Below are positions 56,801 to 59,800 of a DNA stretch of 64,000 bases, one piece after another (the first letter of the stretch is position 1; every line of letters begins with the position of its first letter). The position numbers were made by a program. The DNA is from a virus (lineage: Duplodnaviria; Heunggongvirae; Uroviricota; Caudoviricetes), in IMG/VR virus record IMGVR_UViG_2718218452_000012; one strand, written 5' to 3'.

Positions 56801-59800
56801 CTTGCGGAAAAGCTGACACACAAACTGAAAGAGGGCTGGCAGCCATATGGCGGACCGGTTGCCATTACGCCGTACACACTGATGCAGGCGGTGGCTATTG
56901 AAGGAGAGCCACAGGTCGGCCCTTCATCTGAGCCGGATTGGTACTACGTCATCGTACTGGCCGGGCAGTCCAATGCCATGGCTTACGGTGAAGGGCTTCC
57001 GCTGCCGGATTCATACGATGCTCCGGATCCGCGCATTAAACAGCTGGCGCGCCGCAGTACAGTGACGCCGGGCGGGGCTGCCTGCAGATATAACGATATT
57101 ATTCCGGCTGACCACTGTCTGCATGATGTGCAGGATATGAGTACGCTGAATCATCCGAGGGCTGACCTGAGCAAAGGGCAGTACGGCTGTGTCGGCCAGG
57201 GTTTACATATTGCCAAAAAACTGCTCCCGTATATCCCGAATAACGCGGGGATCCTGCTGGTACCATGCTGTCGTGGTGGTTCGGCATTTACCCAGGGCGC
57301 GGAGGGGACATTCAGCGAGTCCACGGGGGCCAGTCAGGATTCGGCACGCTGGGGGGTGGGCAAGCCGTTATATCAGGATCTGATTTCCCGCACAAAAGCG
57401 GCATTGCAGAAAAATCCCAAAAACGTTCTGCTGGCCGTCTGCTGGATGCAGGGTGAGTTTGACATGAGCGCCGCCACCCACGCACAGCAACCTGCGCTGT
57501 TTACAGCCATGCTGACACAGTTTCGTGCTGACCTCTCCGTGTTTAACGCGCAGTGCCATGGTGGCAGCGCTGCAGATGTGCCGTGGATTTGTGGTGACAC
57601 GACGTATTACTGGAAAAATACATACGCTACCCAATACGACACCGTGTACGGCGGGTATAAAAACAGGGAGAGTGAGGGCGTTTATTTTGTGCCCTTCATG
57701 ACAGACGGTAACGGCGTCAATACCGCCACTAACGCGCCGGCAGAAGATCCGGATATTCCGGCATCAGGATATTACGGTGCGGCATCGAGAACGAATGGAA
57801 ACCAGGTATCATCAAACCGCCCGACACATTTCAGTTCATGGGCGCGCAGGAGCATTATTCCGGATCGTCTGGCAACCGCTATTCTGAACGCAGCCGGGCG
57901 CACCTCAGCCTTCATCAGTGGTAAGGCACCGGAAATCAAACCCTCGCCCGGCGGCAACACGCCATCGGGTCCGTCTGCAGATACGTCCGTTCGCACAATC
58001 TCCCTGCTGCCGGCAGCCGGAGAGGCTGCTGCGCAGGGCTGGAGCATTAAGGATGGCGGAATTCAGTTGTCAGATGGTGTATTTAAGATCATCAACCGCA
58101 TGGTGAATCCTCCTTGGAGGGGCTAAATGATCGAGTTTTAAGGGCACGTAGCGAGTTCTGTTTGATCATTGCAGAACTTAGCGGGAGGCGCCATGCGTAC
58201 ATCACTAGTGTTATTCCTTTTATCATTTTCCTTGTGAGTTCTGGCTGCGCATTGCGCAGCCTTTTTTTTATGACCTGCCACTGGCAGATGGTCATCCTGT
58301 GATTTGATTCCGCTTCCGGCTTTTTAACTCTGTTCCTCTACACGGGAGAAATTCGATGTCGATTAAACATTACGATGTTGTCAGGGCGGCGTCGCCGTCA
58401 GACCTTGCGGAAAAGCTGACACACAAACTGAAAGAGGGCTGGCAGCCATACTTTTTTAATAAACAGTAAACAAAAAAGTCAAGAATTATTCATTCTGTTC
58501 TTTCATCATCGGCCACAGCAATACCACAATGCCGCAGACCAGAGCGCCATCAGTCAGTACCAACATTATCCTGCTGGTGAAATCCATCATCACCATCACT
58601 AAAAGCAGGATCACAACAGCAAGCAGACACAGTTTATAAAACAATGTTCAGAAAACGCATTCAGCATGCCTAAGGTTCTATTCCTACGAATAGCCAACTT
58701 GCAACTTAAAATATTATTTATGCAGCCAATTAAATTCTGGTCCTTACAATATCAACCTGAAGATTCTTATCTTGTGCTGATTGATAAATGACAAACCTTT
58801 TACTACCTGCATTGAAAGAAGTAGACAAAACCAGACAATTATCATAACGAGCAAGAACATAATACCAACCATCATTATAATTAATCATTTCATATTCTTT
58901 CTTAAACTGTGGTTTGTAATATCCTGTCAGAAATGAAAAAAGCCAAAAATATGCCACAAAAGCAATCATCACAATCTCAAAAAAATGTTTTTTATAAATG
59001 GCTTATCATAGAAGCATGATACCGATAAAAATCGCCCATAAGATCTTATCGAAATTGTAACCGCCAGCGCAATCGCTGCTGACAGTAGCAAAAGAGGTAC
59101 CTGAATCTTCTGTCTCAATATAGAAAACTCAATAATTGCCGGCACAAACAATAATTCCACAGCAAAATAAAGGCGAAATACATTTAGCTCTTGCATAGAA
59201 TGTTTTCTTTTCACTGCGAAAAAGAATACAACACCAATACCCCAACCGATAAGAAATATAGCAATGACGATAACTGCAAAAAATAAACTTCTGGCAACAT
59301 CATCAACACCTGCACCTACAATCCACCATGGGAAGCCGTAGTAAAAAGAAGTACCCCATCCATAGAAATAAGCACTCCCCCATCCAAGGCATCCCATGTA
59401 GGCAATAAAAAGTGAAGAACTCCTGAGCAGCGCACCATCCTTCATAACCACCCCAATACAAGATGATAACATTGGCTTACAACTCATAACAAAAGCAATT
59501 CAATGCCGTCAAGAGGTTACAGGCTAAAAAAACTCTATTACATAGCAGCCAGCATGTTTACCGTACAAGTACAACTCAGGGCATAAAAAAAACCCACTCG
59601 GCAGCGGGTTTATACATTTTTTACAACATACCAAATTTGCATGAAGTATATGGCTTTTAATCCAGTTTTGCAATATTTTGCTGTAAAAATGCTGCCTTTT
59701 GTTTTGAACGTGTTCTCGTCACAAGCAATAAAGCATCACTATCAAGCTGTAGAAAAATGTGCTTCATTGCAACCCAGCGTTCAGTAAATGTCTCGGACCA

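Follow-up and report, generated by a model that had tools for sequence, protein, structure and literature searches.

The stretch of DNA analysed here, referred to as the window, is 64,000 nt long and belongs to a Caudoviricetes record (IMGVR_UViG_2718218452_000012). Towards its end lie two phage late regions, each led by a gene for a Q antiterminator and separated by a 360-nt block (block b) that is bounded by two junctions, J1 and J2. A perfect palindrome lies 14.3 kb upstream of J1. The features of this region are:

43176..44371: perfect palindrome, 2 x 598 nt, centre 43773/43774, in a RecE-like exonuclease gene; joins prophage L head-to-head to prophage A
54517..55212, plus strand: Q antiterminator of prophage A (Pfam Phage_antiter_Q, E 1e-92; annotated as Q in E105)
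55196-55224, plus strand: pR'-like promoter after the prophage A Q gene (promoter scan)
55423..55672, plus strand: three tRNA genes (CAT, Arg-TCG, Arg-TCT) in the late leader of prophage A
56271..56438, plus strand: DUF3927 (TciB-like) small membrane peptide of prophage A (Pfam E 1.7e-16)
56443..56666, plus strand: STnc100-type RNA element and intrinsic terminator upstream of the prophage A nanS-p gene (Rfam; terminator scan)
56753..58126, plus strand: truncated nanS-p of prophage A (identity to E105 stops at 58091; parent 616 aa)
58091..58092: junction J1, ...GTATTTAAGATCA / TCAACCGCATGG...
58092..58451, plus strand: block b of prophage B, 360 nt, with an STnc100-like element containing a small ORF, a terminator (58243-58261), a ribosome-binding site and 32 nanS-p codons
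58356-58469, plus strand: nanS-p fragment ORF in block b, 37 aa, partial DUF1737
58451..58452: junction J2, ...GGCAGCCATAC / TTTTTTAATAAACAG...
58486..58644, minus strand: DUF3927/TciB peptide of prophage B (Pfam E 3.4e-14; TciB in the phage 434 annotation)
58730..59487, minus strand: membrane-protein gene of prophage B, 247 aa, homologue of 434 gp68, read as ORFs of 172 and 80 aa through a 1-nt homopolymer difference at 58988
59657..60430, minus strand: Q82-like Q antiterminator of prophage B (Pfam E 1e-91; phage 434 annotation; 230 aa in the annotation of relatives)
59673-59645 and 59611-59590, minus strand: pR'-like promoter and terminator, respectively, of prophage B (scans)
Parental continuations at the breakpoints: TTATTAAAAAA-TCAACCGC; GCCATAC-GGCGGACC; AAGATCA-CCAAGCAG; and the 5' part of the exonuclease gene into its 3' part

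Segments of three prophages make up the window. Positions 1-43773 form one collinear match to the ydfJ-Qin region of OkiPb01675, a Qin-type prophage (L), and positions 43774-58091 match prophage A of E105, which is of the serU/mtfA type, with 3 SNPs and no indels over 14.3 kb. These are followed by block b (58092-58451), which is 100% identical to prophage B and inverted, and by positions 58452-64000, which are 99.9% identical to the same prophage, read here on the minus strand and characterized by a phage-434-type late region at the ybhC/att-lambda locus. In related strains the three prophages reside at three separate chromosomal loci, ~0.4-0.8 Mb apart. The alignments to the parental prophages end exactly at 43773/43774, and the strand changes across the joins from minus to plus and back to minus, once at either end of the 14.3-kb segment. 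This segment carries an O-like replication gene (47069-48088), whose homologues bear the name replication protein O. All three joins lie within 14.7 kb, and the preceding 43.7 kb are ordinary. As judged from these alignments, the last 20 kb of the window are pieces of three lambdoid prophages that meet at a compound non-homologous breakpoint.

Self-comparison of the 64-kb window revealed a direct repeat (56640-56847 versus 58243-58450; 208 nt, 98% identity) which, when aligned without gaps, extends over 209 nt with 6 mismatches (56640-56848 versus 58243-58451), a length and identity far above chance expectation for 64 kb. It spans an intrinsic terminator (56640-56658 and 58243-58261, each followed by a T-run), the nanS-p ribosome-binding region and the first 32 nanS-p codons, which include part of DUF1737. 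Upstream of the repeat the homology is weaker, with 59% identical columns in a gapped alignment of 56465-56639 and 58092-58242, a stretch that corresponds to the STnc100-type RNA element. The first copy of this element (56443-56615) matches Rfam STnc100 (RF02076) with 100.8 bits, above the gathering threshold of 47 bits, and at the homologous position in the flipped block a match (58070-58272) reaches 37.6 bits (E 6.8e-06), which is under that threshold.

The first-pass annotation had placed this repeat at 56668..56850 and 58267..58451 and had named an identity below ~90% as grounds for dismissing it; the repeat is real, slightly longer than described and above that limit. The claim that the site is a rearrangement junction is borne out by the identities and orientations of the segments. 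Minus-strand genes do take over 3' of 58451 (DUF3927, 58486-58644; the membrane-protein gene, 58730-59487; Q, 59657-60430), and two Q-led late regions do converge on the junction, their Q genes being on opposite strands and their pR'-like promoters at 55196-55224 (plus) and 59673-59645 (minus). Other parts of that description need correction. The downstream copy had been taken for a tandem copy of the 5' end of the adjoining gene; such a duplication from prophage A is rejected, as the block is 100% of the prophage B/phage 434 type, shows 6 differences from the copy in prophage A and resembles A at only 59% in its upstream half. Two junctions exist instead of one, 58091/58092 having been overlooked. 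The upstream nanS-p gene, called intact, is cut at codon 446 and encodes 457 aa versus 616 aa in relatives, without DUF6645, and the "two membrane morons" correspond to a single 247-aa gene, interrupted at 58988 by a homopolymer difference (T6 versus T7). The lysis genes, which follow nanS-p in every parental arrangement, are missing on the nanS-p side, as had been stated, and in fact on both sides of the junction.

Block b is 100% identical to E2863, OkiPb01675, A1 and phage 434, and its orientation is opposite to that of the sequence from 58452 onward. Its natural place, occupied in phage 434 and in hundreds of E. coli prophages, is flanked by the DUF3927/TciB gene on one side and by the body of nanS-p on the other. 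At J1, nanS-p breaks off at codon 446 and block b follows from its first base, with 0-1 nt microhomology; at J2, codon 32 of the fragment abuts, without microhomology, the complement of the base that lies just before block b in its natural setting, so that the strand switches from position 359 forward to position -1 reverse. Both junctions are blunt and both fall at the same phosphodiester bond of phage B, which marks the beginning of the flipped block at J1 and the end of the adjacent arm at J2. Around J1, the stretch identical between prophages A and B begins 385 nt ahead of the junction and runs on for 401 nt past it, and further nanS-p paralogues remain collinear across codon 446.

The truncated nanS-p product retains DUF1737 and SASA and lacks DUF6645, all three of which are present in the 616-aa parent; it is ~99% identical to 616-aa prophage esterases across its first 446 residues, and its last 11 codons come from the foreign sequence after J1. 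In the 37-aa ORF, the 32 nanS-p codons cover 29 of the 53 DUF1737 positions. In this arrangement nanS-p has lost its C-terminal domain, and the 32-codon fragment is probably a dead stub. A "DUF1737 domain-containing protein" annotated in O145 strain RM9872 turned out to reflect the insertion of ISEc20 in nanS-p, an ordinary event.

The palindrome is the first of the three blunt joins in order along the window. Its arms show no mismatch for 598 nt on either side of 43773/43774 and are 99% identical over 1192 nt, the strand switching at offset 0. The parental sequence at the centre (...AGCGCA/CAGG...) contains no hairpin-forming repeat that was used, and prophages L and A share an identical stretch here that reaches from -99 to +597. 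Both arms hold the full 598-nt repeat and not a k-mer overlap. SNPs in the arms were considered as a marker of which phage had been copied, and were uninformative: the inner 477 nt are 100% identical in many genomes, including K-12 derivatives. A 1.2-kb perfect palindrome without central asymmetry is expected to be unstable in E. coli owing to SbcCD.

None of the three joins was found in 5,426 complete E. coli genomes. J1 and J2 were absent from GTDB representative genomes and J2 from metagenome and viral contigs, no match spanned the J1-J2 region among 50,697 phage records, and the two chimeric ORFs were absent from a gene-position index of 153 billion genes. As all of these searches were negative, a recurrent natural arrangement was rejected. 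J1 and J2 are part of a chain of three private blunt joins that includes the perfect palindrome at 43773/43774. With such a chain present, the organism may not carry the arrangement as a stable feature.

A homologous crossover between paralogous prophages does not account for the joins, since polarity reverses at 58451/58452 and 43773/43774 with an overlap of 0-1 nt and unrelated flanks. A programmed or recombination-mediated inversion, be it of a Pin/Hin-type segment, between homologous repeats or through an IS element, and possibly serving as a switch for nanS-p or the late genes, might be suggested by the presence in the window of a pinQ invertase gene (2620-3210) and of inverted homologous arms around the region (56280-56464 versus 58453-58635, 80-87% complementary). 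However, no ~26-bp inverted crossover sites of the Pin/Hin/Gin/Cin kind were found at the ends of block b, where the longest inverted match is 7 nt and off the junction; the joins lie outside the shared homology, and no IS, transposase ORF or target-site duplication was found at 58091/58092 or 58451/58452. Moreover, one side of block b is joined mid-gene to a different phage, and in 666 genomes and phage 434 the block has one orientation only relative to its neighbour, the natural one and never the flipped join. We therefore give an inversion hardly any credence and regard it as effectively refuted. Two further observations belong here: relatives carry IS1, ISEc20 or IS3 nearby, not at the join points, and the a/b boundary resembles a hix half-site loosely and by eye only, which we treated as chance.

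The joins could also be contig ends at repeat boundaries, brought together by concatenation or scaffolding without spacer Ns, the 360-nt block being a tiny contig. The sizes of the blocks (at least 43.7 kb, 14.3 kb, 0.36 kb and at least 5.5 kb) are contig-like, the third and fourth blocks meet exactly at their natural adjacency, and two blocks stop at the same base of a shared repeat. Yet the breakpoints are inside, and not at the edges of, the stretches identical between A and B (J1) and between L and A (palindrome), the collinearity of the other nanS-p paralogues extends through codon 446, both palindrome arms are complete instead of overlapping by a k-mer, and the blocks are not sorted by length, which makes this explanation quite improbable. 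Likewise, simple fold-back reads from long-read sequencing are unlikely, no adapter remnant being present at any join. Because the joins are exact to the base and the base quality is high, neither such reads nor scaffolding without Ns explains the data well, and because the breakpoints are inside stretches shared between prophages, physical chimeric molecules must have existed.

The combination of blunt joins, a reused bond and a palindrome is the signature of fold-back or template switching, and not of homologous, site-specific or transposon-mediated recombination; the class includes ODIRA, tandem inversion duplication, MMBIR and amplification chimeras. Consistent with this, each switch connects positions that either coincide or are separated by a few hundred bases, and homology between them is slight or absent. 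Neither short pre-existing inverted repeats, as in ODIRA or tandem inversion duplication, nor 2-21 nt of priming homology were found at the three joins, and inspection of the four parental breakpoints revealed no evident common cleavage motif. Extension of a 3' end, located at a break or stalled fork or close to one, would have continued on the opposite strand, at the same base or a few hundred bases off. We consider that there is about an even chance that the compound breakpoint is a fold-back/template-switch chimera that arose outside normal inheritance, which we hold to be slightly likelier than its being a stable part of a chromosome. Strand-displacement amplification, library chimeras assembled through prophage-shared repeats, or a minority molecule would be possible sources. 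The expected instability of the 1.2-kb palindrome, a path that links loci ~0.4-0.8 Mb apart in relatives, and the clustering of all joins behind 43.7 kb of ordinary sequence argue for such an origin. On the other hand, the joins are exact, without adapter or filler, and the base quality is high, with no indels relative to E105 over 14.3 kb. Amplified DNA is, in addition, seldom used for E. coli isolates. Strand-displacement amplification produces mostly inverted, nearby chimeras, and more than 70% of them have 2-21 nt of priming homology (PMC1855051), compared to 0-1 nt at the present joins.

The chimeric molecules could equally have formed in the cell, and a genuine closed-fork or inverted-amplification rearrangement, of the type described as ODIRA in yeast and tandem inversion duplication in Salmonella, is possible though doubtful. 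Nascent leading and lagging strands would be joined at a fork while induced or partly induced prophages replicate in situ; a zero gap would give the palindrome at 43773/43774, a 360-nt lagging-strand gap would give the b-to-a' join at 58451/58452, and cleavage at the boundary of the stem-loop would explain why the same bond is reused at 58091/58092. The inverted, origin-bearing segment of prophage A, from the exonuclease gene to nanS-p, would then be tied to L and B by homologous recombination. The minus/plus/minus pattern around a 14.3-kb segment with an O-like replication gene agrees with this, as do the blunt and adapter-free joins in sequence of high quality, and a breakpoint used twice is what one break or one fork accident would predict. 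Among relatives of prophage B a gene for Gam is present; Gam inhibits RecBCD and SbcCD and would allow DNA ends and palindromes to persist. Junctions of this type and their later remodelling have precedent in PMC4689423, which cites Kugelberg 2010. However, the joins occur in no other genome or gene catalogue searched, a perfect palindrome of 1.2 kb should be remodelled fast, the junctions of ODIRA and tandem inversion duplications usually lie on short pre-existing inverted repeats, of which there are none here, and the three arms are different phages and not copies, which requires extra inter-locus recombination steps. We think it unlikely that the window records a heritable closed-fork event of this type in a wild E. 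coli, in which in situ replication from a prophage origin would have inverted the 14.3-kb origin-bearing segment between paralogous prophages, leaving the palindrome and the 360-nt "Okazaki-gap" loop as fossil fork positions.

The arrangement probably has no function. The two Q-dependent late operons appear to run head-on and to be dead-ended, without lysis or structural genes. If genuine, the window would be a rare natural E. coli snapshot of fold-back replication errors at prophage forks, including a kilobase palindrome that has not been remodelled, and would show how lambdoid prophages that reside in the same host can be fused into dead-end hybrids in which nanS-p and two late operons are inactivated. 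If it is an artefact, no conclusions on the structure of the prophages, the truncation of nanS-p or converging late transcription should be drawn from the last 20 kb. In either case, no new gene, RNA or regulatory device is implied.

Several known systems resemble the arrangement in part. The inverted triplications generated by ODIRA in yeast and human, and the tandem inversion duplications of Salmonella, have arms that are copies of one locus and junctions seated on short inverted repeats, whereas here three prophages are joined bluntly. Chimeras produced by phi29 strand displacement (PMC1855051) share with the present case inverted joins 0-360 nt apart on opposite strands, clustered and several per molecule, but mostly prime on 2-21 nt of complementarity instead of 0-1 nt. 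Prophage-mediated inversions and mosaics that arise in E. coli by homologous recombination likewise involve paralogous lambdoid prophages with long near-identical stretches; however, homologous exchange leaves each phage collinear, with the crossover inside shared sequence, whereas polarity flips here without usable homology. With the NanS-p sialate O-acetylesterases of Stx and lambdoid phages (DUF1737, SASA and a C-terminal domain), the truncated product has DUF1737 and SASA in common, but not the C-terminal DUF6645/lectin-like domain, and its gene has the position downstream of Q, in the Q-to-S region, at which NanS-p has been placed (PMC10462455). The 32-codon stub is too short to be a capsid-binding domain like that of phi24B gp84 (preprint). 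A further counterpart is the late region of coliphage 434 (LpxR, YlcG, Q82-like protein, membrane protein, TciB/DUF3927, small ORF with terminator, NanS-p esterase and holin), which window positions 58092-64000 match gene for gene with 99.9-100% identity. In contrast to phage 434 and the 434-like prophages at ybhC/att-lambda, the 360 nt that separate TciB from the esterase body are inverted here, and an oppositely pointing, truncated esterase of another prophage takes the place of the esterase body, the holin, the endolysin and all that follows.

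Comparison with annotated genomes divides the window into four blocks derived from three prophages: L, of the Qin type; A, of the serU/mtfA type; and B, of the phage-434 type found at ybhC/att-lambda.

Blocks of the window
1-43773: block 1, chromosomal ydfJ and the complete prophage L
43774-58091: block 2, prophage A, matching the serU/mtfA prophage of strain E105
58092-58451: block 3, 360 nt, 100% identical to a segment of prophage B
58452-64000, minus strand: block 4, the adjoining part of prophage B, 99.9%

Block 1 forms a single collinear 43.8-kb alignment with strain OkiPb01675 (99.6%), which ends at exactly 43773, in the middle of a RecE-like exonuclease gene. 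Block 2, which differs from the E105 prophage by three SNPs and no indels, begins on the opposite strand at the exonuclease position where block 1 stops, and takes in dicB/DicF, dicA/dicC, an O-like replication gene, Q, three tRNAs, a TerB pseudogene, DUF3927 and STnc100 before it ends at codon 446 of the sialate O-acetylesterase gene nanS-p. The three prophages reside in relatives at three loci, ydfJ/rspB (Qin), serU/mtfA and ybhC, and in strain C7 prophages L and A lie ~0.5 Mb apart in the same orientation. Early genes common to L and A make the region 33.5-54.2 kb an imperfect mirror image (84-99%).

The join at 43773/43774, which unites L and A head to head, is blunt and generates a perfect zero-spacer palindrome in the exonuclease gene; its arms pair without mismatch for 598 nt each and are 99% complementary over 1192 nt (42582-44965). 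Its centre reads ...TTAGCGCA/TGCGCTAA..., and the parents read ...AGCGCA/CAGG.... The joins at either end of block 3, J1 and J2, are also blunt (a single shared A at most at J1, nothing shared at J2), and the prophage B bond AAAAAA/TCAACC serves twice: block 3 starts at it and block 4 ends at it.

Sequences at J1, J2 and the parental sites
Parental B, TciB side/block 3: ...CTGTTTATTAAAAAA/TCAACCGCATGG...
Parental B, block 3/esterase body: ...GGCAGCCATAC/GGCGGACC...
Parental esterase at codon 446: ...GTATTTAAGATCA/CCAAGCAG...
J1 in the window (58091/58092): ...GTATTTAAGATCA/TCAACCGC...
J2 in the window (58451/58452): ...GGCAGCCATAC/TTTTTTAATAAACAG...

Strains E2863, OkiPb01675, A1 and O145 RM9872, together with coliphage 434, give the B-type order as NinG, phosphatase, LpxR, YlcG, Q (Q82-like), membrane protein, TciB/DUF3927, block 3, nanS-p body (616 aa), holin and endolysin. 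The proper place of block 3 is therefore directly beside block 4, and it is its orientation that is wrong in the window; the natural arrangement is present in 666 genomes. The strand switch described in the first-pass annotation is confirmed by the genes found past 58451:

58486-58644, minus: DUF3927 peptide of prophage B
58730-59487, minus: membrane-protein gene of prophage B
59657-60430, minus: Q antiterminator of prophage B

The two membrane morons that had been proposed here are in fact one gene. At 58988 the window has T6 and strains A1, E2863 and OkiPb01675 have T7, and this difference splits a conserved 247-aa membrane-protein gene (a homologue of phage 434 gp68) into ORFs of 172 and 80 aa; either a true frameshift or a consensus error in the homopolymer may lie behind it. 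Prophage B also has a lipid A deacylase moron of the LpxR family, likewise found in phage 434, on the opposite strand (60822-61781, plus), with Q on one side and the phosphatase/NinG genes on the other.

The proposed repetition of the nanS-p 5' region also holds: a repeat search of the window gave a direct repeat of 208 nt with 98% identity (56640-56847 and 58243-58450), and ungapped comparison of 56640-56848 with 58243-58451 gave 6 mismatches in 209 nt. The repeat comprises an intrinsic terminator, the nanS-p ribosome-binding region and the first 32 nanS-p codons.

56640-56658: intrinsic terminator with T-run, first copy (terminator scan)
58243-58261: intrinsic terminator with T-run, second copy (terminator scan)

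Weaker homology upstream of the repeat (56465-56639 and 58092-58242, 59% identical columns) corresponds to an STnc100-type RNA element, which scores 100.8 bits in the first copy (56443-56615) and 37.6 bits, under the Rfam gathering score of 47, in the second (58070-58272). Both prophage types, and phage 434 too, have this structured RNA and a strong terminator between DUF3927/TciB and nanS-p, and the annotation of phage 434 places a 62-aa membrane ORF over the element; the pair is a conserved, unstudied late-leader element.

The consequences for nanS-p and late transcription were deduced from the sequence and domain searches. The prophage A gene keeps DUF1737 and SASA, loses the C-terminal DUF6645 and has 11 foreign codons at its end, and the 32-codon stub covers 29 of 53 DUF1737 positions. 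Since published work ascribes capsid binding to DUF1737 and catalytic and lectin-like functions to the downstream domains (PMC10462455; preprint on phi24B gp84), it is unlikely that either product functions as a whole. Promoter scans found a pR'-like promoter after each Q gene:

55196-55224, plus: pR'-like promoter after Q of prophage A
59673-59645, minus: pR'-like promoter after Q of prophage B

Q-modified transcripts from A and B would therefore collide at ~58.0-58.7 kb, in line with the convergence of two Q-dependent units claimed earlier. Neither late operon reaches lysis or morphogenesis genes, so that the claimed absence of lysis genes after nanS-p stands as well.

Several other elements were observed in the prophages. 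Each of L and A has one DicF sRNA gene (76.7 bits each), at mirror positions 42674-42725 (plus) and 44822-44873 (minus), adjoined by dicB/ydfD. In prophage A the TerB-family gene that precedes DUF3927 (55846-56274) has an internal stop, and the same stop occurs in strain E105, where the gene is annotated as a pseudogene. For the tRNA at 55423-55498, the first in the phage cluster, ARAGORN gives tRNA-Met (CAT) and RefSeq relatives give tRNA-Ile; the latter label is the one expected for a lysidine-modified CAT anticodon, as in ileZ-argN-argO type clusters of Stx-like phages. Rfam matches include IS009 RNA (3342-3540, minus), overlapping the tail-fibre assembly region beside pinQ, two cspA-type thermoregulator leaders (cspI, cspB; 28757-29141 and 31651-32043, minus) and the sok antitoxin RNA (51953-52127, plus), which adjoins hokD.

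Join-spanning queries of 5,426 complete E. coli genomes returned no record covering both sides of J1, J2 or the palindrome join, nor did any of 50,697 phage records cover both sides of the J1-J2 region. GTDB representative genomes contained no exact 35-mer over J1 or J2, metagenome and viral contigs did not contain the one over J2, and the chimeric ORFs (457 and 37 aa) were not in a 153-billion-gene index.

Homologous recombination does not account for the joins, as strand polarity reverses where no sequence is shared; nor does an invertase, as block 3 ends without inverted sites and has a single orientation in nature; and the joins carry no IS. An explanation by contig ends at the borders of repeats is likewise rejected: J1 lies 385 and 401 nt within a stretch identical in A and B, the palindrome centre lies 99 and about 598 nt within a stretch identical in L and A, and other nanS-p paralogues stay collinear across codon 446. 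In sbcCD+ E. coli, a perfect 1.2-kb palindrome that lacks central asymmetry should be unstable. For this reason, and because the path connects loci hundreds of kilobases apart, the three private joins lie together within 14.7 kb, preceded by 43.7 kb of sequence that is ordinary throughout, and the joins are absent from all relatives searched, we give an even chance to a non-heritable or in-vitro origin. The same features weigh against a genuine rearrangement, which we regard as somewhat less probable; yet the joins are exact and free of adapter or filler, the bases are of high quality, the breakpoints could have come only from physical chimeric molecules, and one break used twice fits a single cellular event. 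Moreover, relatives of prophage B encode Gam, which would shield DNA ends and palindromes during induction. Scaffolding or other causes take the small remainder.

Whether cellular or in vitro, each strand switch may have moved a 3' end onto the opposite strand, at offset 0 in the palindrome and 360 nt back at J2. Such a geometry would fit a nascent leading strand that was extended on, or ligated to, the lagging side of its own fork, and equally a polymerase leaving a broken template end and restarting nearby. One break or nick at AAAAAA/TCAACC could account for the double use of that bond: the TciB-side 3' end would restart at codon 32 of the other fragment, leave its 5' end 360 nt on and restart at codon 446 of the homologous esterase gene. 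Prophages A and B are indistinguishable across the last 385 nt ahead of J1. It seems rather unlikely that a closed-fork event occurred naturally at prophage replication forks and left the kilobase palindrome unremodelled.

The components are all known, namely the 434-type and Stx-phage-type Q-to-S regions, NanS-p, DUF3927/TciB and STnc100, and so is the type of rearrangement, blunt fold-back joins; the only novelty is the present private instance. The minus/plus/minus pattern, which surrounds a 14.3-kb segment with a phage replication gene, resembles the inverted triplications of ODIRA, the closed-fork amplification of yeast, and tandem inversion duplications (PMC4689423). The same switch geometry is typical of chimeras from phi29 strand-displacement amplification, of which more than 85% are inverted and local (PMC1855051).
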